A program made the translations under genes and the position numbers. Under the pieces are notes generated by a model that was given only the letters and a program-made list of their open reading frames with translations, was not told where the DNA came from and did no database searches. A stretch of DNA of 63,827 bases from Mustelus asterias. Lineage: Eukaryota. Shown piece by piece: positions 10,140-50,599 of the stretch; the stretch's first letter is position 1, and each line of letters begins with the position of its first letter. The DNA lies in contig NW_027590659.1 in assembly GCF_964213995.1 (NCBI RefSeq), positions 124,001 through 187,827 on the forward strand, given 5' to 3'.

Positions 10140-10520
10140 TGGGGTTGTTTTCCGTGGAGCAGAGGAGGCTGAGGGGGAACATGATGGAGATGGATAAGAT
10201 TATGAGGGACATCGATAGAGTAGACGGGAAGAAAGCTTTCCCCTTGGTGGTGGGATCAATGACCAGGGGGTATAGATTTAGGGTAAGGGGCAGGAGGTTT
10301 ACAGGGGATGTGAGGAAAACCTTTTTCACCCAGAGGGTGGTGGGAGTCTGGAACTCTCTGCCTGAAAGGGTGGTGGAGGCAGAGACCCTCAGAACGTTTA
10401 TGAAGTGCTTAGCTATGCATTTGCAATGCCAAGGCTTACCAGGCCGTGAGCCAAGTTGGGTGATTTGTCTTTGACCGGCACAGATGCAATGGGCCGAAGG
10501 GCCTTTTCTGTTCTCTAGAC
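10140..10520 (+). mobile_element. CR1-type LINE 3' fragment
   Basis: FSVEQRRLRGN...TRGYRF...FFTQRVVGVWNSLP. Confidence 0.9.
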
Positions 10521-12170: not shown

Positions 12171-12669
12171 TCCTCCCAATTCTTTCCTCCACGATAGGTC
12201 GCAGCATTTAAAGAACACGCCCAGGGCCCAGTGCTGTGTCTGAGGGTATCTGACTGCAGTAAGGTGAGTGATACAGGAGGGTCTCACTGTCTGAGGGAGG
12301 TGAGTCTTAGCCGGGGGGGGGGCGTGAGTGACCCAGGTTAATCTGACACTCCAGGGACAGTTGGAATGGAGCTTTCCCCCGGGCTGTCCCCTCCCCGTGT
12401 CTGCGTGGGTTTCCTCCGGGTGCTCCGGTTTCCTCCCACAGTCTGAAAGATGTGCTGGTTAGGGTGCATTGGCCGTGCTAAATTCTCCCTCAGTGTAACC
12501 CGAACAGGCGCCGGAGTGTGGGCGACTAGGGGATTCTCACAGTAACTTCATTGTAGTGTTAATGTAAGCCTACTTCTGACACTAATAAATAAACTGAAAC
12601 TGAAGGTCAAGGTGCTGCTGTGACAATGCACTCTTGTTTAAACACTCTGCAATGCTGAGACTGGGAGAA

Positions 12670-13135
12670 GTGACCACCAGGGGGCAGCATTGCAGCTTCT
12701 GTCCCCCTATTGAAACTGGGATTGTTGCTCCATCTGCTGCACAATCCCAACCCCATCCACTGGGGGCAATCTGGACAATGGCTGCAGACAGACCTCACTG
12801 CGCGTGCGCCGCAATGACACCCACCGCCGGCGGCCATCTTGCGTTGCCAAGGGAGACGGCCAGCGGCCATATTCCGTTGCCAAGGGAGACGGCGGCGACC
12901 ATCTTGAGTTGCCAGGGGAGACGGCATCGATGCGGCGGCGTCTGCGCGCGCTGACCTCTGGGAGCATTCCCGTCCCGCACATGCGCACAGGCCGCCCCGC
13001 CCCCTCGACAGACCCCCCTGTTGTCCCGCCAACGAGCATGGGGCCGGGCCGGAGTGGGCAAGAGGTGACACTGGGGAGGAGCAGCCCCCCCCCCGGGAGT
13101 GTTACAGCGACGCCTGGTGGCCAGGAAGGGCAATA
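12670..13135. promoter_or_regulatory. CpG-rich promoter/insulator-like island (YY1 + RFX X-box triplet, NRF1-like sites, flanking CTCF motifs)
   Basis: CCACCAGGGGGCAG at 12,674; three ~33-bp units ccat(c/a)tt..gttgcca(a/g)gggagac (X-boxes at 12,843, 12,876, 12,908); gcacatgcgcac; reverse CTCF-like motif at 13,107-13,120. No downstream gene identified. Confidence 0.6.
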
Positions 13136-27996: not shown

Positions 27997-29832
27997 GGGC
28001 AGAGATTACTGATACAAGACCCAGATTGTAATAACAGAGGGAGGTTTAGGGCAGAGATTACTGACACCAGGCCCAGAGTGTAATAACTGAGAGAGGTTTA
28101 GGGCAGAGTTTGCTGAATCAAGGCCCAGATTGTAATAACTGAGAGAGGTATCGGGCAGAGATTACTGATACCAGGCCCAGATTGTAATAACTGAGAGTGG
28201 TTTAGGGCAGAGATTACTGATACAAAGCCCAGATTGTAATAACTGAGAGAGGTTTCGGGCAGAGATTACTGATACCAGGCCCAGATTGTAATAACAGAGA
28301 GGTTTAGGGCAAAGTTTGCTGAATCAAGGCCCAGATTGTAATAACTGAGAGAGTTGTAGGGCAGAGATTACTGACACAGTGCCCATATTGTAATAACTGA
28401 GAGAGGTTTATGGCAGAGATTACTGATACAAGTCCCAGATTGTAATAACTGAGAGAGGTTTAAGGCAGAGATTACTGATACAACGCCCAGATTGTAATAA
28501 CTGAGAGAGGTTTCGGTCAGAGATTACTGATACCAGGCCCAGATTGTAATAACTGAGAGAGGTTTCGGGCAGAGTTTACTGATATAAGTCCCAGGTTGTA
28601 ATGACTGAGAGATGTTTAGGGCAGAGTTTACTGATACAAGGCCCAGATTGTAATAACTGAGAGAGGTTTAGGGCAGAGTTTACTGAATCAAGGCCCAGAT
28701 TGTAATAACTGAGAGAGTTGTAGGGCAGAGATTACTGATACAAGGCCCATATTGTAATAACCGAGAGAGGTTTCGGGCAGAGATTACTGATACAAGGCCC
28801 AGATTGTAATAACCGAGAGAGGTTTCGGGCAGAGTTTACTGATACAAAGCCCAGATCGTAATAACTGAGCAAGGTTTCGGGCAGAGTTTACCGATTGAAA
28901 ACCCAGATTGTAATAACTGAGAGAGGTTTATGGCAGAGATTACTGATACAAGGCCCAGATTGTAATAACTGAGAGAGGTTTGGGGCAGAGTTTACTGATA
29001 CAAGGCCCAGATTGTAATGACTGAGAGAGGTTTCGGGCAGAGATTACTGATACAAGGCCCAGATTGTAATAACTGAGAGAGGTTTAGGGCAGAGATTACT
29101 GATACAAGTCCCAGATTGTAATAACTGAGAGAGGTTTCGGGCAGAGTTTACTGATACAAAGCCCAGATTGTAATAACTGAGAGAGGTTTCGGGCTAAGTT
29201 TACTGATACAAAACCCAGATTGTAATAACTGAGAGAGGTTTAGGGCAGAGATTACTGATACAAAGCCCAGATTGTAATAACTGAGAGAGGTTTCAGGCAG
29301 AGTTTACTGATACAAGGCCCAGATTGTAATAACTGAGAGAGGTTTCGGGCAGAGTTTACTGATACAAGGCCCAGATTGTAATAACTGAGAGAGGTTTCGG
29401 GCAGAGATGACTGATACAAGGCCCAGATTGTAATAACTGAGAGAGGTTTCGGGCAGAGTTTACTGATACCAGGCCCAGATTGTAATAACTGAGAGAGGTT
29501 TCAGGCAGAGATTACTGATACAAGGCCCAGATTGTAATAACTGAGTGAGGTTTCGGACAGAGTTTACTGATACAAGGCCCAGATTGTAATAACTGAGAGA
29601 GGTTTCGGGCAGAGTTTACTGATACAAGGCCCAGATTGTAATAACTGAGAGAGGTTTCGGGCAGAGTTTACTGATACAAGGCCCAGATTGTAATAACTGA
29701 GAGAGGTTTCGGGCAGAGTTTACGGATACAAGGCCCAGATTGTAATAACTGAGAGAGGTTTAGGGCAGAGATTACTGATACAAGGCCCAGATTGTAATAA
29801 CTGAGAGAGGTTTCGGGCAGAGTTTACGGATA
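27997..29832 (+). repeat. 52-bp minisatellite, ~35 copies (copy 2)
   Basis: Same unit as 3030-4657, about four units longer. Confidence 0.97.
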
Positions 29833-32800
29833 CATGATCCCGGCAGGATTTACTGTTTGATAATCCAGCTGTTTGGCCCCGTTATGAGCACACCTTCCAT
29901 GGCCATCAAGTCCGGAAGTCGGCCTTGAACCCTTGAAGAATGAGAGGCGATCCCATTGAAACAGACTTAAAATTCTTCCAGTGTGTGACAGGGTGGATGT
30001 AGATTGGATGTTTCCCCTGGCTGGTGAGACTAGAACCAGGGGACACAATCTCAGAATCAGGGGCAGACCATTGAAGACTGAGATGAGGAGGAATTTCTTC
30101 ACTCAGAGGGTGGTGAATCTTTGGAATTTTCTATTCCAGGGGGATGTGGAAGCCCAATCATTCAGCATGTTCAAGACGCAAATCGATTGTGTNNNNNNNN
30201 NNNNNNNNNNNNNNNNNNNNNNNNNNNNNNNNNNNNNNNNNNNNNNNNNNNNNNNNNNNNNNNNNNNNNNNNNNNNNNNNNNNNNNNNNNNNNNNNNNNN
30301 NNNNNNNNNNNNNNNNNNNNNNNNNNNNNNNNNNNNNNNNNNNTGTGTTTATTACTGTGTGCGTCTGAGTGTTACTGGGTGAGAATATCTGTTTCTCTGT
30401 GTTTTCATAGAATCCTAGACTCCTGCAGTGCAGAAGGAGGCCATTTGGCCCATTGAGTCTGCACCGACCACAATCCCACCCAGGCCCTATCCCCATTACC
30501 CCATGCATTTACCCGAGCTCGTCTCCCTGACGCGGAGGGACAATTTAGCACGGCCAATGCACCCGAACCAGAACGTCTTTCAGACTGTGGGAGGAAACCG
30601 GAGCACCCGGAGGAAACCCACGCAGACACGGGGAGAACGTGCAAACTCCGCACAGACAGCGACCCAAGCCGGGAATCGAACCCGGGTCCTTGGCACTGTG
30701 AGGCAGCAGTGCTAACTGTGTGTTTGATGCGTGTGTGTGTGTTTGTGTGTGTGTGTGCGTTTATTGTTTGTGTGTGTGATTTGTGTGTGTGCTTTTTGTG
30801 CGTGTTTTATGTGTGCTTGTGTGTGTGTGTTTTGTGTGTGTGCGTGCTTTGTGTGTGTGCGTGTTTTGTGTGTGTTGGTGTGTGCGTGTTTTGTGTGTGT
30901 TGGTGTGTGCGTGTTTTGAGTGTATTGGTGTGTGCGTGTTTTGTGTGCGTACGTGCACCATGATCTGTTTGAATGCTGGCGCAGGATCGATGGGCCAAAT
31001 GGCCTACACCTGCTCCTATTTTCCTTTGAGATTTAAATACATTGACACACATGCACGCTGACACACACACACAGAAAGATATACACAGTGTGGACGTATT
31101 TATTGACCACTTAATGTGACTGAATGCTACACATCCCAGTTTACCAAAGACACACAATATTCAGCAGCATTGTAAACAGCGCAGCTGGAAACATCAAATT
31201 GGGGATTTGGTTTGAAAAAGGGTCAAAGCCTCTCTTGCTAAAGGCTGTTTGTCTATATTGTGCTGACTGTGATACACTGCCATCCTCTGCTGCCTGCTGG
31301 ACATTGCTCCAGCCGCAGAGAGAGTGAAGTAGATCAGAAACTCACTGGGAGAGAATGCAGCTTCACACAGTATCCATCCAAAACGACAGGAGCATCAGCA
31401 ACACACACAAGCTCCGTGTGGAGACTGAGAGGGGCTCAGTGTGGAACACAAACCTTCACACTAAACCTGGAAGGACATTGATGAAGAGTTTAAAACAAAA
31501 CTTCAGCAAATGTTTTGAAACATTTTGGTCCGTGGAAAAGTGCAGTGTGTAAAAAGCTGAAGATGTTTCCATTTCACATCTTCCTGCTTTGGGGAAATGG
31601 GAGTTATCTTTGCATTTACAAGGATATGGGGAGGGAGGTGTTTGAATGGACATTCAGCTTTTTGGGTGATTAAAGTGTTAATTTGTTTCCAGAAGCTGTT
31701 TACAGTGATTGTCCCGAGAGATTGTATTGTTTCAGTGATGTCGACGTCTCCAATACTTCAGACAGAGGAAGGAAGCAATATACAAAAGGAAAGATAGGGG
31801 GAATCACTACATTGAAGGTGTGAGGCCTCATCACTCTCTGTCTGGTTTTGTTCTGAAATCTTTACATTTTTAAACACTGAAACCTCTTGCCCTTGTTGGG
31901 AATATCACGGCGGTTTGAGTAAAAGCAAACACTGATCCCACACTAAACACCCCCCCCCCCAACACAGGACTGAGCAGAGAGTGTGAAATGTGACTGGTGT
32001 CAGAGTGGATTGTCAAACTGACAGAAGGGATTTGAAAAATCTCTAAATGATTCATTGATTAAAAACTCTAACATTAATGTCCCGCATCATAAACATCTGC
32101 TTCATTATTGTATCTTTCTTTTACATATCAAGTGATGGGTTGAATTTTGGACGGTGTAGATTTCCCTCAGCTGATTATTAAGATTCCTGATTGACACAAA
32201 TACAATATCTGCTGTCGGTGACTCCAACAGTGAAATTCTCTCAGTTTATCATTCTGAATCTGTCACTGAGACAATTGTGGGCGGTAGTTCAGTTTTCAGT
32301 GTGAAATGTAGAAGGTAACTTTTGTTGTAATGTAATTGTAGTTAATAGTTTTCCTGTAGTTTAAATCTCAGGTATAAATTAATAACTTTTCTCGTTCCTT
32401 GTTCACAATTGTTCATTTCCCGTGATGTTGAGCTCTGGTTTTCTCTTTCTGGTGTCTGGTACAGCTGTACAGATATTGGGCAGTTCAGAGCGGGGGGGTT
32501 CTGATCTCATTGTGAAGCTCAAAGGTCAGATTCACTTTTGTTAACTTTAAAATCAATTTTCCTGTCAAATATTCTCTGAATTTGTAAATAAATATTGAAT
32601 GGAAAATAAAATCTGACTTTGCCAAACTCTCTTTCTGTATTTCTCTGTTGGTGTGTTTATGTGTGTGTCTCTCTGTCTCTATCTCTCTGTGTATCTGTGC
32701 GTCTCTCTGTGTATCTGTGCGTCTCTCTGTGTCTCTATCTCTCTGTGTATCTGTGTGTCTCTCTGTTTCTATCTCACTGTGTATCTGTGTGTCTCTCTGT

Positions 32801-33856
32801 CTCTATCTCTCTGTGTATCTGTGTGTCTCTCTGTGTCTCTATCTCTCTGTGTGTCTGTGTGTCTCTCTGTTTCGATCTCTCTGTGTATCTGTGTGTCTCT
32901 CTGTGTCTCTATCTCTCTGTGTCTCTATCTGTCTGTGTGTCTCTCTGTCTCTATCTCTCTGTGTATCTGTGTGTCTCTCTGTGTCTCTATCTCTCTGTGT
33001 GTCTGTGTGTCTCTCTGTTTCGATCTCTCTGTGTATCTGTGTGTCTCTCTGTGTCTCTATCTCTCTGTGTCTCTATCTGTCTGTGTGTCTCTCTGTCTCT
33101 ATCTCTCTGTGTATCTGTGTGTCTCTCTGTGTCTCTATCTCTCTGTGTCTCTATCTCTCTGTGTATCTGTCTCTGTATTTCTCTGTATCTGTGTCTCTCT
33201 CTGTATATTTGTATATTTCACTCTGTCTCTGTGTTTGTGTCTCTCTCTTTGTTTCTCTCTGTCTCTATTTCTCTGTATCTGTGTGTCTCTCTGTCTCTGT
33301 ACTTCTCTGGATCTGTGTCTCTCTCTCTGCCTCTGTGTGTATATCTCTCTATGTATCTGTGTGTGTCTCTCTGTCTCTGCATTTCTCTGTATCTGTCTCT
33401 GTCTCTGTGTTTCTCTGTCTCTGTGTGTCTCGATGCTAAGGGCCTAGTATTTCAGGCTCTGACCTGAACCCACAATCTCTCTGACTCTGAGCGAAGATTA
33501 CTACATTGAAGGTGTGAGGCCTCATCACTTTCTGTCTGGTTTAGTTTTGTAATCTTTACATGTTTAAACACTGAAACCTCGTGCCCTTGTTGAGAATATC
33601 ACTGCGGTTTGAGAAAAGCAGACACTGATCCCGCACTAAACACCCCCCCCAACACAGGACTGAGCAGAGTGTGTGAAATGTGACTGGTGCGAATGTGGAT
33701 TGTCTTTTAAAAGTGGGTAAGAAACACTTCATTTTCAAATCTTTACCCTGCTTCTGTAGCGTCTCAGATTCCACCTAATCTGCACATCTTTGGACTGTGG
33801 AAGGAAACCGGGGCACCCGGAGGGAACCCACGCAGACACAGGGAGAATGTGCATAC

Positions 33857-34101
33857 TGTGGTGGACCTCAGTTGTGCCTTTGTCCTATATGGACCACCGT
33901 TGTGTGTGTTTGTCATACCTGGACACATCCCCTTCCAGTTTGGTTCCTCCCCTCAGCACCTAGTATAAAGGTGGCTGTCTCCTCCCCCTTGTTCAGTCCA
34001 GGTCGGTTAATTGTTGGGATCTGCTCCTGATTCTGTTGTGAATAAAAGCCTACACTTATATTGGCATATCGGTAGTCTTTCGCCTTATTGATAGTGCATC
34101 A
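33857..34101 (+). repeat. 5' LTR (TATA box tataaa at 33,965; AATAAA at 34,041)
   Basis: Matches 38,142-38,386; TG/CA termini. Confidence 0.97.
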
Positions 34102-34125
34102 ATTTTATTCACAACAGTTACTAGT

Positions 34126-37100
34126 ATGGAGCAGTTTCTAAAACCCGACAAGTTAGCTTTAGACCCTCAAGAGGTTGGAGCCTCTGATAAATTTGATCAT
34201 TGGTTGGACTGCTTCGAAGCATTCGTCGACACCGCTACGGCCATCGACACCGACGCTGCTAAACTCCACGTGCTCCGCGCCCGGGTAAGCGAAACTGTCT
34301 ATGGAATCTTCCGGGACGCTGCTACTTACGCGGACGCTATCGAACTCCTAAAAGGGCAGTTCCGAAAGAGCCCTAACGTGGTTTACGCCAGACACCTCCT
34401 AACTACCCGCAAACAGCAGCCAGGAGAATCGTGCGCCCAATTTCTGCGCGCCCTGCGAGTCCTCGCCCGAGCATGCGACTGTAAGGCTGTTTCAGCAGCT
34501 CAGAACACGGAGGATCTGATCCGCGACGCCTACGTTGCGGGCATTGAGTCTACATACATCCAGCAGCGTCTGCTGGAACAAGATGACCTAGACCTCCGGA
34601 AAACGGCCACTATGGCTGAAACGTTAGAAGCAGCCTCCCATAATCTCGGGTCTTACCTTGGATCCCGTTCCACCGACGGCTCCACTGCGACGGCTGCTCC
34701 AGCAGGGCCCAAATGTTACTTTTGTGGCCTCCCTAAGCACCCTCGGCGTCACTGCCCGGCAAAGGACGCGATTTGCTCCGGATGCGGTAAGCTAGGCCAC
34801 TTTGTCAAAGTCTGCAGAGCAAAGCCGCTTCTGAAGACTCGTGGAGCCATGTGTGCTCCGAGGGCGCGGCCATCTTTGATGCAGGCGGCGGCTGCGCGCG
34901 AATCGCCATCTTGGATGCGGTCACCGGAAGTGCGGGAATCGCCATCTTTGATGCGGTCACCGGAAGTGCGGGAGTCGCCATCTTTGAGACTGGCATCAAG
35001 GCAAGCTGAGCAGGAAGCTTCATCCGTGACGTCATCAGACGGCGACGAAGATGGATTCTTCTTTAATTCAACAGTGGCATCGATTTGCCTGGACCAGTCG
35101 CAGCCACATCAACTCTCCAAGTCCATAATGGAGATCAAGGTAAATGGTTATGCAGAAAACTGCCTGTTTGACTGTGGGAGCACGGAAAGTTTTATACACC
35201 CTCGCACAGTGCGTCAATATGCCCTTCCCGTGCGACCCTGGAGCCAGACCATCTCCATGGCCTCGAATTCTCACTCAGTGGAGGTCCTCGGGTGCTGCTT
35301 GGTGACGCTGACGGTACAGGGCACAGTCTACGAGCGTTTTCGGCTCCTCGTGCTGCCGCGACTCTGCGCAGCTGTACTGCTGGGGTTAGATTTCCTCAGC
35401 CATCATAGAAGCGTCATCCTGCAGTACGATGGCCCTTATCCCCCGCTCTCCGTCTGCAAGGCGCCGTCACGGCAGCGCCCCTCGCGCACCACCTGCAGTC
35501 TCTCGACCCTCAAGATCACCCCCCCCCCGTTATTTGATAACCTCACCCCGGATTGTAGGCCTATAGCCACCAAGAGTAGGCGCTATAGTGCGGATGACCG
35601 GGCCTTCATTCGGTCCGAGGTACAACGTTTGCTCCAGGAAGGGATTATCCAGGCCAGCACCAGCCCCTGGAGGGCGCAAGTGGTCGTAGTTAAATCGGGG
35701 GAGAAACACCGCATGGTGATTGACTACAGCCAGACCATAAACAGGTATACCCAACTAGATGCATATCCTCTTCCCCGTATCGCGGACATAGTCAACCACA
35801 TCGCGCACTATAGGGTTTTTTCAACGATCGATTTGAAATCGGCTTACCACCAGCTCCCTATCCGCTCGGAGGATCGCCCATACACTGCCTTTGAGGCGGA
35901 TGGCCGCCTCTACCAGTTCCTCCGAGTCCCCTTTGGTGTCACCAATGGGGTCTCAGTCTTCCAACGGGCCATGGATCAAATGGTGGACCAGCACGGACTA
36001 CGGGCCACTTTCCCGTATCTGGATAACGTCACCATCTGCGGCCATGACCTGCAGGACCATGATGCCAACCTACAAAAATTCCTTCGTACGGCCACTCTCC
36101 TGAACCTCACATACAATGAGGCGAAGTGTGTTTTCCGGACACGCCGCCTCGCCATCCTTGGGTACGTGATAGAAAATGGTGTCCTTGGCCCCGACCCAGC
36201 CCGTATGCGTCCCCTTATGCAGCTTCCCCTCCCTACTACCCTCAAAGCACTGAGGAGATGCCTGGGCTTCTTCTCCTATTATGCCCAGTGGGTTCCCCGT
36301 TACGCAGATAAAGCCCGTCCGCTCCTAAAATCGACCTCTTTTCCCCTGGCGGAGGAGGCCTGTCGGGCCTTCGATGACATCAAAGCGGACATCGCGAAGG
36401 CCGCGATGCACGCTGTGGACGAATCCATCCCATTCCAAGTGGAAAGTGATGCGTCTGACTTTGCCCTAGCTGCCACCCTTAACCAGAGGGGCCGTCCGGT
36501 GGCCTTCTTTTCCCGGACCTTACAAGGCCCTGAGATTCGACACTCCTCGGTCGAGAAGGAGGCCCAGGCCATCGTGGAAGCCGTCCGGCACTGGCGCCAT
36601 TATCTCGTGGGCCAACGATTCACCTTAATTACGGACCAGCGGTCAGTTGCCTTCCTGTTTAACACCAGGCAAAAGGGCAAGATTAAGAATGACAAGATCT
36701 TGCGGTGGAGGATTGAGCTCTCCACCTACAGATATGACATCATGTACCGGCCTGGGAAGCTCAATGAGCCCCCAGACGCCCTGTCCCGTGGATCATGTGC
36801 CAGTGCCCAACTAGACCAGCTACAGTCCCTCCATAACGACCTCTGTCACCCGGGTGTCACCAGATTTTTCCATTTTGTCAAGTCCCGTAACCTGCCCTTC
36901 TCCCTTGAGGAAGTCCGGACGATTACCAGGCAATGCAGGGTCTGCGCTGAGTGCAAACCGCAGTTCTACCGGCCAGGTAGGGCGCACCTTGTAAAGGCCA
37001 CTCGCGCGTTCGAGCGCCTTAGCGTTGATTTTAAAGGCCCCCTCCCCTCCTCTAACCGCAATGTTTATTTCCTGAATATCATTGACGAATACTCACGTTT

Positions 37101-38091
37101 CCCTTTTGCCTTCCCCTGCTCGGACATGACCACGGCTACAGTGATTCGGACCCTGAACAAGCTCTTCACCCTGTTCGGCTTCCCAGCCTATATTCATAGC
37201 GACCGTGGGTCCTCTTTCATGAGTGATGAGCTGAGGCAGTACCTGCTCGCCAAAGGCGTTGCCTCCAGCCGTACCACTAGCTATAACCCCAGGGGCAATG
37301 GTCAAGTAGAGCGGGAGAACGCAACCGTCTGGAAGGCCGTTCTATTAGCGTTACGGTCTAGGGGCCTTCCAGTCAGCCGTTGGCAAGACGTCCTTCCGGA
37401 CGCATTACATTCCATTAGGTCACTCTTGTGCACAGCGACCAATACGACCCCTCACGAGCGGATGTTTTCATTTCCCAGGAAGTCCTCCTCGGGTACTTCG
37501 CTCCCGGATTGGCTGATGTCCCCGGGACCCGTCCTGCTTCGGAAGCATGTCCGGACCCATAAGGCAGATCCCTTGGTCGAGAAGGTCCAACTGCTCCATG
37601 CTAATCCCCAATATGCTTATGTAGCGTACCCTGATGGGCGGGAGGACACGGTTTCTGTCCGTGACTTGGCACCCGCGGGTGCCCCGGAGGTCACCACGTC
37701 CTTCCGCCCCACGGTCCCTGGTGTCGTCCATTCGGAGACTGCTACGCCTCTTCCTCCCTCAGTCCCTGTCCCCAATGTAGTGTGCCCAGAGCCTGTTGCA
37801 GCCCCCCACCCCCCAGCTCCGGTTCCCACCGTTCCCCACACGCCACCAGGGCCACAGCCCATTCCTCTCGCCCCTATGTACAGCTCGCTTGAGTCGCCGG
37901 AGCCGTCGCCACGCAGTACCCGACGACTGGACGGGACGACGGATCGGTCCGCTTCACACCACCCAGCGCCTTCTCTCGACGCTCACTGTACGGAGCCTGG
38001 GCCGACATCGCTCCCTGCTCGGACGACTCTGCGACCTGCACTACGACGATCGCGACGACGGATCAAGCCACCGGTTCGTCTGGACTTGTGA
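34126..38091 (+). CDS. Gypsy gag-pol polyprotein, 1321 aa, single ORF
   Basis: Two CCHC knuckles (CYFCGLPKHPRRHC, CSGCGKLGHFVKVC); protease LFDCGS; RT (IDLKSAYHQ, PFG, YLDN); RNase H (ESDAS, EKEA, TDQ); integrase HHCC + D,D,E (DFKG, DRG, VER); Pro-rich tail. Confidence 0.97.
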   Translation: MEQFLKPDKLALDPQEVGASDKFDHWLDCFEAFVDTATAIDTDAAKLHVLRARVSETVYGIFRDAATYADAIELLKGQFRKSPNVVYARHLLTTRKQQPGESCAQFLRALRVLARACDCKAVSAAQNTEDLIRDAYVAGIESTYIQQRLLEQDDLDLRKTATMAETLEAASHNLGSYLGSRSTDGSTATAAPAGPKCYFCGLPKHPRRHCPAKDAICSGCGKLGHFVKVCRAKPLLKTRGAMCAPRARPSLMQAAAARESPSWMRSPEVRESPSLMRSPEVRESPSLRLASRQAEQEASSVTSSDGDEDGFFFNSTVASICLDQSQPHQLSKSIMEIKVNGYAENCLFDCGSTESFIHPRTVRQYALPVRPWSQTISMASNSHSVEVLGCCLVTLTVQGTVYERFRLLVLPRLCAAVLLGLDFLSHHRSVILQYDGPYPPLSVCKAPSRQRPSRTTCSLSTLKITPPPLFDNLTPDCRPIATKSRRYSADDRAFIRSEVQRLLQEGIIQASTSPWRAQVVVVKSGEKHRMVIDYSQTINRYTQLDAYPLPRIADIVNHIAHYRVFSTIDLKSAYHQLPIRSEDRPYTAFEADGRLYQFLRVPFGVTNGVSVFQRAMDQMVDQHGLRATFPYLDNVTICGHDLQDHDANLQKFLRTATLLNLTYNEAKCVFRTRRLAILGYVIENGVLGPDPARMRPLMQLPLPTTLKALRRCLGFFSYYAQWVPRYADKARPLLKSTSFPLAEEACRAFDDIKADIAKAAMHAVDESIPFQVESDASDFALAATLNQRGRPVAFFSRTLQGPEIRHSSVEKEAQAIVEAVRHWRHYLVGQRFTLITDQRSVAFLFNTRQKGKIKNDKILRWRIELSTYRYDIMYRPGKLNEPPDALSRGSCASAQLDQLQSLHNDLCHPGVTRFFHFVKSRNLPFSLEEVRTITRQCRVCAECKPQFYRPGRAHLVKATRAFERLSVDFKGPLPSSNRNVYFLNIIDEYSRFPFAFPCSDMTTATVIRTLNKLFTLFGFPAYIHSDRGSSFMSDELRQYLLAKGVASSRTTSYNPRGNGQVERENATVWKAVLLALRSRGLPVSRWQDVLPDALHSIRSLLCTATNTTPHERMFSFPRKSSSGTSLPDWLMSPGPVLLRKHVRTHKADPLVEKVQLLHANPQYAYVAYPDGREDTVSVRDLAPAGAPEVTTSFRPTVPGVVHSETATPLPPSVPVPNVVCPEPVAAPHPPAPVPTVPHTPPGPQPIPLAPMYSSLESPEPSPRSTRRLDGTTDRSASHHPAPSLDAHCTEPGPTSLPARTTLRPALRRSRRRIKPPVRLDL

Positions 38092-38141
38092 TATTGTTTC
38101 CGCTTCACCCCCGTGTTGTTTTTTTAAAAGGAAGGGGTGAA

Positions 38142-38386
38142 TGTGGTGGACCTCAGTTGTGCCTTTGTCCTATATGGACCACCGTTGTGTGTGTTTGTCA
38201 TACCTGGACACATCCCCTTCCAGTTTGGTTCCTCCCCTCAGCACCTAGTATAAAGGTGGCTGTCTCCTCCCCCTTGTTCAGTCCAGGTCGGTTAATTGTT
38301 GGGATCTGCTCCTGATTCTGTTGTGAATAAAAGCCTACACTTATATTGGCATATCGGTAGTCTTTCGCCTTATTGATAGTGCATCA
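38142..38386 (+). repeat. 3' LTR
   Basis: Matches the 5' LTR; preceded by the PPT and followed by the TSD. Confidence 0.97.
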
Positions 38387-41300
38387 CATACTCAACTCCC
38401 AACCGAGAATTGAACCCGGGTTCCTGGTGCTGTGAGGCAGCAGTGCTAAACACTGTCCACCATGTAGCCCTATCCCATGTATTGGGACACGGTGAAAAGT
38501 ATTGTTTCTTGCACGCTACACAGACAAAACATACCATTCATAGAGTCCATTTGGGAGAAGGAGAAGAGAGGGTGCAGAATACAGTGTTGCAGTTACCGAT
38601 AGGGTATAGAGAAAGATCAGCTTAATGTCTGGTAGGTCCACTCAAAAATTAACATTCTGACCAAACACTAAAGCTTTCCACAAAACAAGGCTCACAAATT
38701 CAACACCACTTTCCTTTGTCCGCTCTCCCATCATGCTGTGCGCGGAGTCTCTGATCGATGCTAAGGGCCTAGTATTTGAGGCTCTGAGCTGAACCCACAA
38801 TCTGTCTGATTCTGAGGGAAGATTACTGCCACTCAGATACAGCTGGCTGCAATATCCCCTTGAAATATATCTGTTGTGTACAGAGTCACATGTTTTTTTT
38901 TCCCTGTGTCTGCTGTCCTCAAAGAACTATTGAATAATCTAAACATCCGCATTAATTATCACAGAACAAGGCCAACATGATGGAATCGAGTATCAGGTTT
39001 AAAAGTTTATTTATTAGTGTCACAAGTAGGGTTACATTAACACTGCAATGAAGTTACTGTGGAAAATCCGTAGTCGCCATGCTCTGGCGCCTGTTTGGGC
39101 ACCTTGGGGAGAATTTAGCATGGCTGAGACACCTAACCAGCACGTCGTTCGAAATGTGGGAGGAAACCGCAGCACCCGGTGGAAACCCACGCAGACACGG
39201 GGAGAATGTACAAACTCCACACTGACAGTGACCCAAGCCAGGAATCAAACCCGGGTCCCTGGCGCTGTGAGGCAGCAGCGCTAACCACTGTGCTGCCCCT
39301 CATCGAAACATTGTGCAGTTGTGGATTGCACAGGATAGGAGGGATGTGATAGCACTGGAAAAGGTGCAGAGGAGATTCACCAGGATGTTGCCTGGCCTGG
39401 AGAGTTTTAGTTCATAGAATCATAGAATCCCTACAGTCCAGAATGAGGCCATTCAACCCATCAAATCTGCACGGACTCTTACCCAAGCTTACCCCGTAAC
39501 CCCACGTATTTTCCCGCTAATCCCCCTAACCTATACATCGTGGGACCCTCAGGGCAATTTTGCATGGACAATGCACCCGGAGGAAACCCACGCAGACACG
39601 GGGAGAATGTGCAAACTCCACACAGACAGTAACCCGAGGCCGGAATTGAACCCGGGTCCCTGGCGCTGTGAGGCAGCAGTGCTAACCACTGTGCTACCGT
39701 GCCGCCACTCGAACTGAAGAGAGATTTTATAGACTGAGGGTGTGATCTTACCACCTGTTGACGCCACACTCCCGCTCTGCGAGGTCGGAGAATCTGGTGA
39801 CCAGCCAAATCTCCTTTCACTGCAGTGGGATGGGAAAATCCTGCCGGTCTGAACGGTGATAAGATTCCACCCTGGGGTTGTTTTCCGTGGAGCAGAGGAG
39901 GCTGAGGGGGAACATGATGGAGATGGATAAGATTATGAGGGACATCAATAGAGTAGACGGGAAGAAAGCTTTCCCCTTGGTGGTGGGATCAATGACCAGG
40001 GGGTATAGATTTAGGGTAAGGGGCAGGAGGTTTACAGGGGATGTGAGGAAAACCTTTTTCACCCAGAGGGTGGTGGGAGTCTGGAACTCTCTGCCTGAAA
40101 GGGTGGTGGAGGCAGAGACCCTCAGAACGTTTATGAAGTGCTTAGCTATGCATTTGCAATGCCAAGGCTTACCAGGCCGTGAGCCAAGTTGGGTGATTTG
40201 TCTTTGACCAGCACAGATGCAATGGGCCGAAGGGCCTTTTCTGTTCTCCAGACCTCCATTGCTAAAACACAACCTCACTGACCCAGCTTCTGGTCATCCA
40301 TCCAAATCTCTCCCTCCGCAGCTCGGGGACAAATCCTGCCACGCAATCTTCCTTTGAAGTGGCTTTGGACATTTCATTCTCCGTGAGGACTTGTCCGGAT
40401 AGTGGCTGCTGTTGTTGTGTTTGTCTCAGTGTCAGCTCAGAAGCATGGACAACATGTTAGAAATGGCCGTCTCCCAGTGAGTGTGAGGACAGGGCAGGCT
40501 TTGAGCGAGGCCTGGGCCGCTCCCTGAAGGACACAGGGCCACCATTGTGCTTTTTGCTGACAAACAGAAAGCTTTCACCTCTCTCTCTCTCTCTCTCTCG
40601 TGTCTCATCTCACTCACATTCTGCCCCTTCCATTCACTCTGTGCTGCTTTCTGGAGGAGGCTGCCAGCTTTATCCGCCACAGAGCATCTGCCAACAAGAA
40701 CATCAGATGAAACCTTCCATTCCCCAAGTCCCTCTTTCCTCTCTGCTCCTCGCTGTCTTTCCGGAGGAAATGGGATGGGAAGCTGATGGGAAAAGATTTG
40801 CAGGGCTCCAGGGACAAGGTGGAGCAGTGGGACTGGCTCGATTGCTCTAGCAGAGAGTCGACACCAGCTGAATGGGCTGAATGGCCTCCTTCATTCTGTG
40901 GCTATTCTATGGTTGACACACAATAGATAGTCAATATCTTTTCCCAAAGGTAGGGGAGTCTAAAACTCGAGGGCATGGGTTTAAGGTGAGAGGGGAGAGA
41001 TACAAAAGTGTCCAGAGGGGCAATCTTTTCACACAGAGAGTGATGAGCGTCTGGAACAAGCTGCCAGAGATAGTAGTAGAGACGGACACAATTTTATCTT
41101 TTAAAAAGCATTTAGACAGTTACATAGGTAAGATAGATGTAGAGGGATATGGGCCAAATGTGGGGAATTGGGACCAGCTTAGGGGTTAAAAGAAAAAGGG
41201 CAGCATGACAAGTTGGGCCAAAGGGCCTGTTTCCATGCTGTAAACATCTACGACACTATGACAACTTGTCATTTGGGTCTCAACTTCAAGTTTCTAGGTG

Positions 41301-42419
41301 TCCAGATCACCAACAACCTGTCCTGGTCCCCCCATGCCGACACTATAATTGAGAAAGCCCACCAACACGTCTACTTTCTCAGGAGGCTGAGGAAATTTGG
41401 AATGTCAGCTACGACTCTCACCAACTTCTACAGATGCACCATAGAAAGCATCCTTTCTGTATCACGGCTTGGTCTGGTTTCTGCTCTGTCCAAGACTGCA
41501 AGAAATTACAAAAGGTCGTGAATGTAGCCCCGTCCATCACGCAGACTAGCCTCCCATTCATTGACTCTGTCTACACTTCCCGCGGCCTTAGAAAAGCAGC
41601 CAGCATAATTAAGGACCTCATGCACACATTCTCTCTTCCACCTTCTTCCGTCAGGAAAAAGATACAAAGTCTGAGATCACGTACCAACCGACACAAGAAC
41701 TTCCCTGCTGCCCTCAGACTTTTGAATGGACCTGCTACATATTAGATTTATCTTTCTCTACACCCTACCTATGACTGCAACACTACATTCTGCACCCTCT
41801 CTTTTACTTCTCCCCGATGTACTCTATGAACGGTATGTTTTGTCTGTACAGCATACAAGAAACAATACTTTTCACTGTATCCCAATACATGCGACAGTAA
41901 TAAATCAAATCAAATCAAAATCCTCCCTATTCTTTCCTCCACGATAGGTCGCAGCATTTAAAGAACACGCCCAGGGCCCAGTGCTGAGTCTGAGGGTATC
42001 TGACTACAGTAAGGTGAGTGATACAGGAGGGTCTCACTGTCTGAGGGAGGTGAGTCTTAGCCGGGGGGGTGCGTGAGTGACCCAGGTTAATCTGACACTC
42101 CAGGGACAGTTGGAATGGAGCTTTCCCCCGGGCTGTCCCCTCCCCGTGTCTGCGTGGGTTTCCTCCGGGTGCTCCGGTTTCCTCCCACAGTCTGAAAGAT
42201 GTGCCGGTTAGGGTGCATTGGCCGTGCTAAATTCCCCCTCAGTGTAACCCGAACAGGCGCCGGAGTGTGGGCGACTAGGGGATTCTCACAGTAACTTCAT
42301 TGTAGTGTTAATGTAAGCCTACTTCTGACACTAATAAATAAACTGAAACTGAAGGTCAAGGTGCTGCTGTGACAATGCACTCTTGTTTAAACACTCTGCA
42401 ATGCTGAGACTGGGAGAAG

Positions 42420-42880
42420 TGACCAACAGGGGGCAGCATTGCAGCTTCTGTCCCCCTATTGAAACTGGGATTGTTGCTCCATCTGCTGCACAATCCCAAC
42501 CCCATCCACTGGGGGCAATCTGGACAATGGCTGCAGGCAGACCTCACTGCGCGTGCGCCGCAATGACACCCACCGCCGGCGGCCATCTTGCGTTGCCAAG
42601 GGAGACGGCCAGCGGCCATATTCCGTTGCCAAGGGAGACGGCGGCCACCATCTTGCGTTGCCAGGGGAGACGGCATCAATGCGGCGGCGTCCCCGCGCGC
42701 TGACCTCTGGGAGCATTCCCGTCCCGCACATGCGCACAGGCAGCCCTTCCCCCTCGACTGACCCCCCCTGTTGTCCCGCCAACGAGCATGGGCCGGGCCG
42801 GAGTGGGTAAGAGGTGACACTGGGAGGAGCAGCCCCCCCGGGAGCGTTACAGCGACGCCTGGTGGCCAGGAAGGGCAATA
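42420..42880. promoter_or_regulatory. Second copy of the CpG-rich YY1/RFX/CTCF island, abutting the V cluster
   Basis: Paralog of 12,670-13,135; left CTCF core changed to CCAACAGGGGGCAG (42,423). Confidence 0.6.
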
Positions 42881-43000
42881 GCAGCAGCACAGTCTCTGCC
42901 CAAAGGCTTCCCCAGTTCAGCTGCTCAGAGACACTGGGAATGTCTTCAAGTGGAAACTTCAGCTTCTCACATTCACCCCCTGTGTTCAGTCATTGTTTCC

Positions 43001-43033
43001 TAGACAAAGTAGTGAAGAACATTGGGAGAACAT
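43001..43033 (-). pseudogene. Truncated TCR V leader exon (MFSQCSSLLCL...) with orphan upstream region to ~43,935
   Basis: Resembles the leader MCSLLCLL of the V at 48,913. The upstream CCAAT block (43,150-43,180) and CTCF block (43,830-43,935) match 49,030-49,060 and 49,710-49,815 at the same spacing. Ends at the duplication junction. Confidence 0.6.
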
Positions 43034-44571: not shown

Positions 44572-45088
44572 CCTCCACTGCACAGAAATAGGTAGCAGTG
44601 TCTGTCACCCGAGTGTCGCCGACACTCAGAGCGCTTCGTTTCTCTGCAACAATGTTCCGAGCCCTGATCCTGCCCTGATCGCTGGTACCGCTCACCAGGT
44701 GCTGCACGGTTCGGTCCGGGTATTGTCTGTACCATTGTAGGACCAGTCCAGCTGCTGTAGTGGAACAGTTCAACGATGCCAGGTCTCCCTCGGTAACCAC
44801 CACAGACTCTGGGGACTGTGATACCTCTTCACTACCAGCGGCATCTGGGAAGGATATGTAGATATGCAACAACATCATAAAATTAAAATCTCATACTGCA
44901 ATACAATGTTGCACAATAAAGTACAATTGGACGCATAATACAAGATAACAACAAAACAGAATACTATTTAACAGAACATAGCATCGCTAATGTGTGAAAT
45001 ATCGCTGTCAGAAATAGCGACCACACTTACACTGAGGGAAGAGTAAGAAATCCAGGGAGATGATCACTAAAGCGAAGCTGAGCTTCAT
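44572..45088 (-). CDS. TRAV: TCR alpha/delta variable segment V1; leader exon 45,088-45,031, V exon 44,844-44,572
   Basis: Leader MKLSFALVIISLDFLLFPQ|YAAGS, gtaagt donor, ttcccag acceptor; EEVSQSP...LNC...WYRQYP...DTATYFCAVE; 23-RSS. Alpha versus delta use cannot be told from germline sequence. Confidence 0.92.
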
Positions 45089-45452
45089 GTCGGATCCTAT
45101 CGACACCTGTAAAACACCTCCAATCAGCTTGGCTCATGTAGATCAGGCCCAGGACAGGGTGATTTGGTCGCTCGCCCTGTCTTGTCAGCCTGGATCTGAA
45201 ATGTCTCAACTTGTTGAGACTTTGAATTGGATTTGATTTGATTTGATTGAATTGGAAAAGTATTTTTAAAAAAGTTGTAGAAAGATCTCAGGACAGGAAA
45301 AGCTCCTGGGAAAGCAAAGCTATTGGACATGAATCTGAGCCCAACACCAGTTATACTCTCGCGACCAGAGCTGGATCTCTGGGACTTTTGATCAGGAAGT
45401 GAAATAGTGAGGGAGCTCCAGCATCGATAGGGTGTGGGGGAGGAGCGTGCGC

Positions 45453-45573
45453 AAGAGTCAGAGCGTCCCGCATTGTGACGTCAGAGCAACAGACATTGTG
45501 ACATCAGAGTATCCGCCTCTGTGACGTCAGAATGCGGGCATGTGAGGCGTCACCATGCAGCCCTTTGACGTCA
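45453..45573. promoter_or_regulatory. Phased CRE/ATF site array upstream of V1
   Basis: TGACGTCA at 45,476, 45,522, 45,566; TGACATCA at 45,499; half-sites at 45,453 and 45,545; ETS caggaagtg at ~45,393. Confidence 0.7.
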
Positions 45574-46989
45574 GTGGGTCTGGTCTGAGGGACAGAAACA
45601 TCTCTCCCGGAGCTGATCTGAATCTCCAGCCCTGAGTTTGTGGGAATTTACAACTGATCAGAAACTGGTTTAACCTGTAAACTGATTTGATGACGGATCT
45701 GCCGGTCTGATCGGATTCTGCAGTTAATTTTCTCAGTCATGGCTGGAAAATAAATGGGTGAATGTTGAGTCCGAGGTTAATGTGGTTCCCGCTGGGTGTG
45801 TGTTTTATGCGGCTGAGAACAGCACTGCTCACAGTGGCTGTATCTATCCAGATTCTAGCCTTTGTCTAACATCAAGTGTAATTTGCTAATCCTGCACTTG
45901 ATAGAAATCAATAAGGTTACATCGAGGTTTCGTTTGAATCAATTTTTAAAAAAACGCCATCTGGGCCTTTTTCTAAGATGAAGCTCAGGTCAAGCACTGG
46001 AAGAAATATAATACCTGCTCCAATCAGCTAGGATGTTGTTAATCAAGCCCAAGACTGGAAGAATGGGCCCTGTGTTGTCAGCTTCGATCTGCAATGTCTC
46101 TCTTGCAGCGACCTTTGAGTGGACCAATTCGGTTTTTGATTGGATATAACTAAAACAGAAAGCAGGCATCTCGGTCTTTGGGCTCGGATCAAGCATCAAA
46201 TCGAGCCCAAGATCTGGTGCGATGCTCTTTCATGTCAGCTTGGATTTTTTGCGAGGACCATGAATTAGATTCAATTTGAATTGGTTTTGGGGGCAATTAG
46301 GAGATGGATTCTGGCTTGGCCAGTCCGCTCTGCGCATTGGCTTTGCAACGTTAAGCAATTACTATTTTACAATCCAACAGACAGGAGCTCCCGAACACAA
46401 TGCAAAGTGCGGGGTTGGATTGGTTTCCATCATAAATTCCGTAAGTGAGTCCTTATTCGGATCATCTCTTCAGAGTCCAATTTCTCCAGCTGGAGATGGA
46501 GAGGTTTGGCTGCCTGACCGGTGCTGTTGCTGTTGTTTGTTTCACGATTGTCTGCAAACATGAGTAAGACTTCCTGCGAGCGCAGTTCAATATCATAAAG
46601 CTGATATTGATCAGTGAGTTCCAGAATAAAACAAAGACAATCCTTGCAATATCATGTTTGAAACTTGAAAAAAAAACTACTTCTGTTTCTGTCTCATCAT
46701 TTGAGGACAATAAGTAAGTGACATAATTTCCAGGACTCAGATCTGAAATACATGTTCAAACACGAATCAATCATATCGGAGTGTGTTTAAACTTTAGACT
46801 GAAATCGCGATTGGGAAATTACTTTAAATGTGTTTATTCCACAATTGCCTATCTGAAATTCCCCCTCCCCACCCCCAGAACACCCAGTTGCTGCCTTCCC
46901 ACATTGTCGCTGTTCTCTCTGTAAAAGGGAAGTTGAAGCAAGTAAAACCTCGTTCCAATCCGCACTCGCATTAAACTGCTATAGTGTCA

Positions 46990-47690
46990 CTGGATCCTCT
47001 CAGCTTACGTACACGCTGCCCTCGAAGCGGCTGCGGGGCTGATGAGACGCTCGCACACCTCCTTGTGGAATGTGCCTTTGCAAAGAAGGTCTGGAGTGAG
47101 ATGCAGTGGTATTTGTCGCGGTTCGTCCCGGGCAGCTCGGTGACGCAGGACTCTGTGCTCTACGGGCTGTTTCCGGGGACGCACACCGAAACAAACATCA
47201 ACTGCTGCTGGAGGGTCATCAACTCGGTGAAGGACGCGCTTTGGTCCGCCCGAAACTTGCTGATCTTCCAGCTGAAAGAATTGTCCTCGACCGAGTGTTG
47301 CAGACTGGCACATTCCAAGGTCCAGGACTAGGTGCTCAGGGACACGCTCAAGCTTGGGGCAGCCGCCGCCAAGGCACAATGGGGAAAGGCCACCGTGTAA
47401 AGCGTCTCAACCGAGGCAGACCGAGGGCCGGGTAACTGCAGAATACCCTCGGCCTGCATAACTGTGTGCCAACCTGAAAAATAACGGCACACAGTAAACT
47501 CGGACACATGTATATAGTTTTAAGAAATGAAATATAACAAAATGTAATGTTTTTGTAAATAAGCACTGTATTGTACTGTAAAAATGATTCTTTTTTGCAC
47601 TGTTTATGACTTTTGGATCTGTCATTTTGCAATGTTTTATTGGAGAGTTTTTTTTTGTGAATAAAGTATATTTTTGAAATTAAAAAAAAA
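46990..47690 (+). mobile_element. L1/Tx1-clade LINE 3' end with 3' UTR and A-rich tail
   Basis: CPRSGCGADETLAHLLVECAFAKKVW...ALWSARN is the C-terminal zinc-knuckle region of L1/Tx1 ORF2; aataaa and poly(A) at ~47,660-47,690. Confidence 0.85.
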
Positions 47691-48332
47691 CATGTGTCGC
47701 AGTGGTGTTTTTAGTCCTGTTGCAGGAGACCTGGATTTCAGTGAGCAGAAATATCCCAAGCTGAGATATAATCAGTGTGCTTGTGAGGAAAATCGCTACA
47801 TTGTTGGGGGCCAGGGGTGGGGATGAAGTCGCTGGTCTGATTATTGTAACAGAGAAACACTGGGTTGTGAATTGTGTCAGAAAACATTTGACAGACATTC
47901 AAAATGAGAATGAACATTGATGGCAACCTGTTCTCAGTGATTGTTTTAAATAGCACAATGACAACCTTGCGAAATGTATATGCCAATATAAGCTGTCCCT
48001 TAGGCAGCAAAATACTCTGATCAGATAGACCCTTTGATCAAAGAGACCTTGAAAAGGAGAGTGAAGATGGGGAAAGTGCTGCACAATAATTCACACAGGC
48101 AAGAAAATGTCATCAAAGGTTGAAGCGTGAGTTAAGGAACTGTAAATGTATTTTTAGTATAGTTGCAAGTTAAAAATTCAACTGTGGCTCAGCCGTTCGT
48201 GTTGAGTGTTGTGTTTTGTTTTGATATTTTGTTTCTGACCCTGTGACTATCACTGTCGAGACAAAATAATTATTTCTGTTTATCAGTGTGGGAGCGCCCT
48301 CTGCTGATCACTAACCGGAACTCCCAGTCTGG

Positions 48333-48370
48333 GGTTTTTGTGCGGGGTTCGCTACATCTGTACCAGTGTG
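48333..48370 (-). other. RSS of V2 (22-bp spacer)
   Basis: CACACTG, 22 bp, ACAAAAACC. Confidence 0.95.
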
Positions 48371-48913
48371 GGCTCCATGGCACAGAAATACACGGCGTTG
48401 TCGGACAGAACACCTCTGGCGATATTTAAAGGAACAGTATTGTTTCCTTTGTGCAAAGCAGCCGAGAATCTATCTGAGAAATCCGGAGACTTATCGGTAT
48501 TGCCCGAGCGATATATCTTCATCAAATATCTCAGAGATTGCCCGGGATACTGGATGTACCAGAACATAGTTTGAAAAGCAGCTGTCGAGCTTTTACAGTC
48601 CAGTGTTACGTTCTGTCCTTCCAGAACCGATAATTCAGATCGATCTTGAAACACTGAATCTTCAGCATTTGCCCCTGTAAGAAAACACAGAACACACTCA
48701 ATATCTGGGAGGGAAGAGAGCCCATGGGACAGACACTGATCGTTTAAACATTGACTCAAAAAAAGAAAATCCTCGAAATTTTCAGTAGATCTGACAACAT
48801 CTGTGAGAGGCGAACAGAGATAATGTTTCAAGTCAGGATGGCACTTTGTCAGAGTTTATTGACTCACCGGGCAGCAAGACCATTATTATCAGCAAACAAA
48901 GTAAGGAGCACAT
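48371..48913 (-). CDS. TRAV: TCR alpha/delta variable segment V2; leader exon 48,913-48,868, V exon 48,674-48,371
   Basis: MCSLLCLLIIMVLLP|GANA, gtgagt donor, cttacag acceptor; EDSVFQ...VTLDC...WYIQYPG...DNAVYFCAMEP; RSS. Confidence 0.94.
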
Positions 48914-50599
48914 GGTGTCTGGTTTCGGGTTCGGCAGAAATGAAGCAGTATTTGAAATGTGTTGACATTTCTGTTCTAATATTCAAGCGGAAATTCACAT
49001 CAGCGGAAACGTAATTTACTCAGAAATTATGGGGCGTTTCCCAGCGACAGGATTGGCCGCTTTCTCAGGATTGATGGTCGTCGGGCATCAATCAGCGTTA
49101 GCTCGACTAATAAGTTCTGAGTTTCTCTTTCTCCCTGTCTTTCTCAGATTCCCCTGCTCTCTCTTCGTTTGGAGCCTGTCTATCTCGCTCTGTTATTCCG
49201 CCTCTGTTTGTCTCGCCCCCATTGCTCTGCTTCTGACCGTCTCTGTCTTCGCACTGGCTCTCCATTCTTATCTTTCTCTCCTTCTCCCTAAAATTCAGAG
49301 TTCAGACAATCCGATTTCCCTCACTCTCCTATTTCAATGAATCCACTAAGTTACTCATTCTTTTGGTGCAACAAATGTAGAAAACGTTAATAACCAGAAG
49401 TTACGAGGTAACATTATGATGGAAATATTTAAATGTAAATAACTAAAGAAGATAGGAGATGAATGTGAATCCAGGGTCATATTTACATCTTGTGTTGTTA
49501 TTTTAGAAAAGGCATCTTATCGGAATCTTGAGGGCTTCATATTGTTTAGAATGAGTTTTATAACCACTATTAATTAAATAAAGCGAATCGCCAGCAATTA
49601 AAATAACGATGTTATTATCTCTCATGTATACGTTCAACTGTGTTCAATTGCATTGGAATAGTAAAAGGATTAACAAGAATAATGCAACATAATCACCAGT
49701 AGTAACGACCTTCTGTAATTTGAGAATTCGATGATTTTCCAGGAAATGACCAGTTACCTCAGATTGCCGCCAGATGGCGGTGCCTCACCATGTTTGTGTG
49801 TTTACTGCAGCGGGTCCGGGAAGCATAACTCGGCGGTTATGTTGTTGATCTGGTTTCCTAGGGCGTCCAGAAGCTCTCGGAAATAATCCTGTCGGTATCA
49901 TGTACTATGTTATATTATGTTGTGTTAAGGAATGAAGATGAACGAATGGAAAGACAGTGGGTGAACTCGAGGCCGAGACCGTGATAGAAGTCAAGGCACA
50001 GATTAGGAGGAACAGATGGAGTTACAGGGATATAAACACGAGGATCTTCATTATCTTCATTCCTTAGCTTGAAGCTTTCTGTGTTGCTGCATTTATTCCC
50101 CTCACGGGATCAACATCTAAATCCACTGTTGTACAAATCGCGTATTGTTTTATTTACAATCGCAACCCCCTGAAATCTACCGCGGAGGACGAAGAGTTCA
50201 GCGTCACCAGGTCACGCACAATGAGATTAGTGTTCTTGAGAAACCGTCACAATAAATAACATTCAATCTGAGCGTGTGAGGCCGATCAAATAAAACCGCA
50301 GACAGCTGAGGACTTTGGATCAGCATTCGATGGAGTTTAGAGAGATGAAGGGGGAATCTCATTGAAAAAGACAGCATACTGAAAATCCTGGACAGAGTGG
50401 ATGTGGAGAAGATATTTCCATTAGTAGGAGAATCTAGCACACGGCACACACCCCCAGAATAGAGGGACTGCACTAGAGAACCGATTTGACTTTAATGTCT
50501 CTTTCCCAGGTGACTGTTTGTGTGCCAGGCAACCATCTTATGTGTACCCATCTGTATATGGGTACACATAAGATGGGACTTAATAGACATTCAACCCCC

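Follow-up and report, generated by a model that had tools for sequence, protein, structure and literature searches.

Replacement of the second aspartate of the reverse transcriptase (RT) motif YxDD by asparagine has been studied in two yeast retrotransposons, as Ty1 D211N and Ty3 D214N. According to excerpts of the two reports (PMC2148107, PMC5371799), both mutants keep polymerase activity in vitro, the same substitution abolishes Ty1 and Ty3 transposition in yeast, the kpol of Ty1 D211N is reduced 223-fold, and RNase H suppressors bring back 5-10% of its transposition. The role of this aspartate has been open since that work. Outside the laboratory, the nematode Bel/Pao elements Cer7-Cer12 and Atlas carry a natural YVDN in intact elements with identical long terminal repeats (LTRs), and excerpts of their descriptions indicate that the 2005 paper leaves the activity of YVDN elements open (PMC554778, PMC9094657). 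Because natural YVDN had been described there, a retroelement RT with two catalytic aspartates is not a new idea (excerpts of PMC554778 and PMC9094657).

Here we describe a Ty3/Gypsy LTR retrotransposon of 4,530 nt (33,857-38,386) with the RT motif YLDN, which lies in a 63,827-nt stretch of Mustelus asterias DNA referred to below, as a whole, as the window (Table 1). Comparison with its relatives makes it very probable that a two-aspartate RT works in a large, old and animal-wide Ty3/Gypsy lineage, to which this element belongs as a recent insertion. The sequence of the element is free of N bases; no further copy of it, no Rfam family and no tRNA gene was found in the window. It has TG...CA LTRs, a 5-bp target-site duplication (CATAC) confirmed by an empty site, and the pol order PR-RT-RNase H-IN behind Gag, as defined by Pfam domains. 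Among solved structures its RT matches Ty3 best (E 6.5e-51, compared with 5e-35 for CaMV and 1e-22 for a gammaretrovirus), and a fold search with the predicted RT-RNase H (RT-RH) region gave CaMV RT the top E-value and Ty3 the best TM-score (0.73 to 4ol8_B) within the best 50 ranks. YLDN aligns with the YLDD of Ty3 RT, so that N634 is equivalent to Ty3 D214 (numbering from excerpts of PMC5371799). The preliminary description had located YLDN and DCG correctly, although the 35,170-35,178 that it gave for LFDCGS covers DCG alone; it had also called the 1321-aa open reading frame (ORF) uninterrupted and the LTRs apparently identical, and indeed there is no stop within 34,126-38,091 and the LTRs agree over all 245 nt. 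At the end of gag (34,900-35,000), a 33-nt repeat is present in three imperfect units (RESPSxMRSPEV).

Table 1. Features of the YLDN element and its insertion site (window coordinates)
Feature	Position	Strand	Details
Empty insertion site	8,657-8,661		single CATAC, in local ~13-kb duplication, 0.3-1.7% diverged from filled copy
Target-site duplications CATAC	33,852-33,856 (left), 38,387-38,391 (right)		left copy inside SINE-like host repeat
5' LTR	33,857-34,101	+	245 nt, TG...CA; TATAAA at 33,964, AATAAA at 34,041
LTR arm of self-pairing stem	34,033-34,047	+	poly(A) signal at end of arm
Leader, primer-binding-site position	34,103-34,117	+	15-nt perfect complement of 34,033-34,047; no tRNA-type TGG start
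Single gag-pol ORF	34,126-38,091	+	1,321 aa, Gag-PR-RT-RNase H-IN, 0 internal stops
Gag zinc knuckles	34,714-34,815	+	two CX2CX4HX4C, aa 197-230
Inferred intron	35,140-37,883	+	GT donor directly 5' of protease, AG acceptor beyond integrase
Protease triplet DCG	35,170-35,178	+	GAC TGT GGG, aa 349-351 within LFDCGS; retropepsin domain aa 336-426
RT motif A aspartate D569	35,830-35,832	+	intact
RT motif B FGVTNGV	35,932-35,952	+	G608/V609 clade-specific; mostly A/P in other Gypsy RTs
RT motif C YLDN	36,016-36,027	+	TAT CTG GAT AAC, aa 631-634 within FPYLDNVTI; D633 intact, N634 at Ty3 D214 position
RNase H	36,424-36,777	+	D775, E812, D837, D884 intact; Q838 clade-specific (TDQ vs TDH elsewhere)
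Integrase	36,817-37,320	+	HHCC zinc-binding region and DDE core
Polypurine tract	38,126-38,137	+	4 nt 5' of 3' LTR
3' LTR	38,142-38,386	+	same sequence as 5' LTR

The insertion is recent, as seen from its identical LTRs (0 of 245 sites differ, 95% upper bound 1.2%), intact ORF, undepleted CpG (observed/expected 0.88 in the ORF vs 0.37 and 0.47 in the flanks) and empty paralogous site. That site lies in a local repeat that pairs window positions 1-13,260, without the element, with 24,966-43,004, at 0.3-1.7% divergence over five blocks. Since the paralogous site holds a single CATAC, either the insertion came after the duplication or the two copies represent alleles at a polymorphic insertion; the ~13-kb repeat would accordingly be a genuine duplication or a tandem assembly of two alleles.

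Other repeats and gene segments share the window with the element. Both copies of the duplication contain a 52-nt tandem satellite (~2,900-5,000 and 28,000-30,200) with units ~92% identical. Degenerate ORF fragments of a non-LTR retrotransposon, presumably CR1/L2-like by motif, lie on the minus strand at 19,652-23,381. Five immunoglobulin V-set segments occupy 44,573-57,900 on both strands; the two that were examined end in an RSS-like heptamer, a 23-nt spacer and a nonamer, a pattern like that of a T-cell receptor V cluster. An inverted duplication (~46,100-50,400 vs 55,400-59,600, 97-98%) spans two of these segments.

The single ORF probably also gives rise to a spliced, Gag-only RNA. Removal of the inferred intron leaves a 340-aa Gag ending in MEIKLA, which has the same length and C-terminus as the named M. 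asterias protein P0272 and differs from it at 4 of 340 residues. When acceptors were scanned, 1 of 169 AG sites gave the ending LA-stop and reproduced the 340-aa P0272; the M. asterias proteins P0278 and P0284 likewise terminate in E-L-A or K-L-A. No donor GT was found at the equivalent position in two related elements (L001 and L002, introduced below). Spliced RNA of this kind would supply surplus Gag in the M. asterias family of this element.

YxDN turned out to be common among the relatives of the element. The best 120 of 1,253 relatives comprise 97 YxDN (82 YLDN, 8 YMDN, 4 YVDN and 3 YIDN) and 23 YxDD, a set ranked by similarity to a YLDN query, in which the N share is inflated for that reason. 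The Asn is encoded by AAC in the window element and L002, and by AAT in L001, L003 and L005; with Asn in 97 of 120 relatives and encoded by both codons, YLDN is neither chance nor a sequencing error. After addition of the best 150 proteins from a 50%-clustered library, 246 of 271 were kept (at least 70% RT-RH coverage; 25 dropped). By RT-RH identity to the window element, DN was carried by 11 of 11 proteins at 70% or more, leaving no YxDD in that class, by 79 of 99 at 60-70%, 19 of 38 at 50-60%, 4 of 28 at 40-50% and 0 of 69 below 40%. Had close sister copies carried YLDD, the preliminary description would have taken YLDN for a private mutation or an error; all 13 relatives with at least 80% RT-core identity (shorter proteins included) are DN. 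This sister-copy comparison rests on relatives, the near-identical P0272 ending upstream of the protease and thus containing neither RT nor PR. Across the clade as a whole, YxDN is not fixed and alternates with YxDD.

Besides the window element, the clade (ingroup) is represented by 177 RT-RH domains, of which 113 are DN, 62 DD and 2 other, and none of 68 outgroup rows is DN; the 50%-clustered library contributes 58 ingroup rows, most of them D (39 DD vs 17 DN). Just 2 of the 178 ingroup rows have another state than DD or DN, which shows the site to be restricted to these two. Pairwise identity among N rows goes down to 38%, and D/N pairs in the clade come as close as 87% RT-RH identity (P0036 and P0053; P0073 and P0061 are 81% identical). 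Judged from the named hits, which are a minority and of which the nearest come from sharks and rays, DN is carried in sharks, rays, a tunicate (Styela), cnidarians (Actinostola, Paramuricea, Xenia), crustaceans (Penaeus, Macrobrachium, Homarus, Petrolisthes, Oratosquilla), flukes (Dicrocoelium, Trichobilharzia) and a gastropod (Plakobranchus), and DD in Trichuris, Trichinella, Apostichopus and three spider genera.

For an RT phylogeny, as the preliminary description had proposed, a tree was inferred with FastTree from the 178 ingroup rows and 32 other Gypsy RTs (36 of the 68 outgroup rows were removed as redundant), with the D/N column taken out. The ingroup forms one clade (SH support 100) apart from the 32 other RTs, its deepest branches are mainly DD, and 45 of the 47 rows in the subclade around the window element are N. 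At least 17 D/N changes are needed on the 178-row tree, compared with 43-58 when labels are shuffled. A maximum-likelihood tree of 48 rows has 13 D/N changes, with supported DD tips within DN groups and vice versa, and constraining N to a single clade is rejected (p-AU 1.3e-11). The direction of single changes is less certain than their number, since the root depends on a long-branch outgroup. The phylogeny thus gives a distinct clade in which N is the majority near the window element and D and N have switched many times.

Could the RT lineage be functional and the window copy itself non-autonomous? Its protease triplet DCG might cripple the enzyme, the copy being helped by sisters with canonical triplets or the change having occurred at or after insertion. 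We consider this rather unlikely. Of the top 120 relatives, 104 have a residue in the column and none of these reads DCG, which occurs once in the wider sets, in the distant protein P0211; the triplet of close relatives from sharks and rays is DSG, DTG or DMG, and a Ser codon becomes TGT by one base change, all of which would fit a crippling change. Against it stands the closest protease found, that of P0288 (70% identical), which reads VCG, with the Cys present and the Asp lost; a Cys at the same position suggests that it was inherited. The clade's triplet is loose in any case (20 DSC and 18 DSA among 283). The T26C variant of HIV-1 protease is reportedly still active, in work by Strisovsky from 2000. 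DCG also occurs naturally in the Pao-like element Kamikaze (excerpts of PMC554778). Judged from these alignments, DCG is a change separate from YxDN, at subfamily level or private, and not a signature of the lineage, and the protease of the window copy is predicted to be probably active.

The leader raises a second question, that of priming. No tRNA-type primer site was found in the leader 3' of the 5' LTR. The leader instead matches its own LTR by a 15-nt complement that none of 20,000 shuffles equalled (fold z -3.0), and the TATAAA box sits 69 nt upstream of the LTR arm of this stem. A scan of prokaryotic assemblies yielded eight contigs with relatives (L001-L008), evidently stray eukaryotic DNA. 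Three of them, L001 (1-4,023), L002 (1-3,949) and L004 (1-3,969), are circularly permuted single-LTR element contigs in bacterial metagenome-assembled genomes (MAGs), probably host DNA from collapsed high-copy families; the proteins P0013 and P0034, which match these bacterial-MAG contigs, bear bacterial names in NCBI. L001-L005 were compared with the window element for the stem, L006-L008 being excluded for want of a readable LTR and leader; L003 and L005 have near-identical LTRs and are apparently one family, so that the six elements represent five families, and the LTR boundaries in L001, L002 and L004 were set by visual inspection.

In all six readable elements, 10-15 nt of the leader pair with a part of the LTR whose end is the poly(A) signal or a variant of that signal; 0-5 of 5,000 shuffles do as well, and matches across families reach at most 8 nt. 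The stem sequence is different in each family while the pairing holds, so the stem is conserved by covariation. By analogy with Tf1, this stem probably lets members of the clade use their own RNA as primer, a role with which a second one, that the stem could hide the 5' poly(A) signal, is compatible. If so, the conserved self-pairing leader would be an added priming route outside chromoviruses.

The preliminary description had linked YLDN to unusual priming, and Asn might accordingly be selected specifically for self-priming, for instance by slowing initiation on an RNA primer. The window element and four loci with the self-pairing leader are indeed YLDN. However, the link is not supported as it was put, because the sole YLDD element with a readable leader, L004 (a single D-bearing example), has a 15-nt stem equal in quality to those of the YLDN elements (0 of 5,000 shuffles). 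With the stem in all six elements, one of them YLDD, self-priming looks clade-wide and untied to Asn. Motif C of Tf1 is a canonical YxDD. Tf1 self-primes nonetheless (excerpts of PMC7175516), and the repeated returns to D in our trees also speak against a strict need. Selection of Asn for self-priming is therefore improbable.

We then considered whether the RT of YxDN elements is dead or crippled, with YxDD relatives copying these elements in trans, which was one of the two readings of the preliminary description. YxDD members do occur throughout the clade, at up to the 87% identity to YxDN members given above, and excerpts of PMC2148107 and PMC5371799 report Ty1 D211N and Ty3 D214N as without transposition in vivo. 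Yet D569, Y631, D633 and the RNase H residue D775 are kept in 114 of 114 N rows, the window element included. At matched integrase distance, N-N and D-D pairs have similar RT distances (0.37 vs 0.33; 0.52 vs 0.60), ORFs of at least 1,100 aa are present in 72 of 114 N rows and 36 of 62 D rows, and between the window element and two YLDN relatives pN is 0.18-0.26 and pS 0.89, near saturation. These comparisons show selection maintaining the N-type RT, which is as constrained as the D-type. An RT supplied in trans could decay freely, and the N-type RT has not, so we reject the defective-RT reading; the neighbourhood of the window element, with its almost uniformly N subclade and no YxDD at 70% identity or above, makes copying in trans by YxDD relatives more improbable still, and we give it very little credence. 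The other of the two readings, a lineage that works with two catalytic aspartates, gains support from the 13 closest relatives and from the constraint on N-type RTs. That Asn reflects repeated post-insertion CpG decay (G to A at a GAC-GAC junction) or sequencing error is hardly credible and is refuted for the clade, for although a published reference alignment has lone YLDN or YMDN rows (Dane-1, SERV) within groups that are YxDD apart from them, where decay may account for a few single tips, DN is absent from the outgroup, the preceding codon is GAT or GAC and the Asn AAC or AAT depending on the relative, and entire supported subclades are N.

How might an RT work with two aspartates? On the biochemistry of Ty1 and Ty3, D569 and D633 would hold the two metal ions, and N634 would keep a part in positioning that is not ionic, with some loss of rate or processivity. 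That cost may be tolerated through a remodelled background common to the whole clade, D and N members both, a tentative reading drawn by analogy. The background would consist of motif B NGV for NAP, SPWRAQ, DYSQT and, in RNase H, TDQ for TDH; a gentler RNase H would offset the slower polymerase, a guess of similarly tentative standing that is made by parallel with the RNase H suppressors of Ty1 D211N. RNase H Q838 is present in 162 of 163 clade rows (His in 57 of 62 outgroup rows, Gln in 0), and the RT differs clade-wide at G608/V609 (A/P in most of the outgroup), Q518 (outgroup P) and S535 (outgroup R). That D and N members have these clade-specific residues in common fits a permissive background that arose first. 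We found no compensating residue that tracks N in 891 residue-by-column tests once kinship was allowed for: the best 25 of the 891 had 11 independent pairs only, of which at most 2.8 went in the same direction, and the top naive associations (N786, S717 and P630) were lost with independent pairs. Since no single residue tracks N, it is the clade-wide differences that carry the argument for a permissive background. A predicted RT-RH model (pLDDT 83.7, 16 sequences) has a Ty3-like fold and is silent on catalysis.

A broader and more doubtful proposal is that the clade joins a distinct form of self-priming, with a stem ending in the poly(A) signal and a primer freed by the remodelled RNase H, to a rebuilt polymerase floor on which the third aspartate is freely exchangeable with Asn. 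The D and N forms would then be naturally selected states of one enzyme that differ kinetically and might set the copy rate, the use of metals or the trade-off between synthesis and RNase H cleavage.

YxDD is usually presented as invariant, and an element with a D-to-N change there is often written off as dead, a rule that would miscall many intact young elements. As Asn is the usual state of a widespread lineage and not damage, nature provides enzyme pairs with and without this aspartate for comparison: D/N sisters up to 87% identical, separated by many independent switches, make the role of the aspartate testable with unaltered proteins. The precedents make the finding less surprising than a lone active YLDN element would be, and the many natural D/N sister pairs give it more value than a private mutation.

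We found no published YxDN Gypsy lineage in the literature outside most subscription journals and Repbase Reports, where the YxDN reverse transcriptases met belong to Bel/Pao. The Gypsy rows of a 418-RT reference alignment contain none of the clade's signature words, nor does a placozoan alignment, and mollusc and annelid supplements, files that may hold no sequence text, gave no match. The term search covered supplements, in part, of PMC6238403, PMC8556966, PMC11673190 and PMC2871265. Look-alikes of one homologue in a protein atlas belong to generic retrotransposon clusters only. The lineage may correspond to a numbered clade from molluscs or annelids, or may be noted in Repbase or subscription papers.

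Compared with known systems, the element resembles several and coincides with none of those considered. Troyka and Kuafuorterviruses are likewise LTR elements of aquatic animals in which one ORF encodes gag-pol and motif C is non-canonical, but their ends are CG...CG, their duplications 3 bp, their motif C I/V/L-ADD and their zinc finger longer (excerpts of PMC12440569 and PMC11673190), in place of the TG...CA, 5 bp, YLDN and CX2CX4HX4C seen here, and this assignment was rejected. A Tag assignment was also considered and rejected. Tf1/sushi chromoviruses share a primer-binding-site position complementary to the element's own LTR and not to a tRNA (excerpts of PMC7175516). In that group RNase H frees the primer, which comprises the initial ~11 nt of the transcript; the paired segment of the window clade, 10-15 nt long, ends at the poly(A) signal in all six elements read and may or may not be the 5' end of the transcript. 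Chromoviruses also have a chromodomain after integrase; none was found 3' of the integrase here (10 Pfam families at E up to 0.1), and a chromovirus assignment was rejected.

The Bel/Pao YVDN elements have D-to-N at the same motif C position. They differ in their triple Cys-His box, the window element having two canonical CX2CX4HX4C knuckles and no env, and no Pao-specific Pfam family was found in its ORF, so a Bel/Pao assignment was rejected; Bel/Pao being a different superfamily, YxDN arose there independently, and it is in the window clade that D and N alternate inside one clade. Ty3 has the domain order of the window element and primes with a tRNA, for which the window element lacks a site, and its laboratory mutant D214N replaces the same aspartate, as does Ty1 D211N. 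Those mutants polymerise without transposing (excerpts of PMC5371799 and PMC2148107), whereas the Asn of the window element is natural, old and present in recent insertions.
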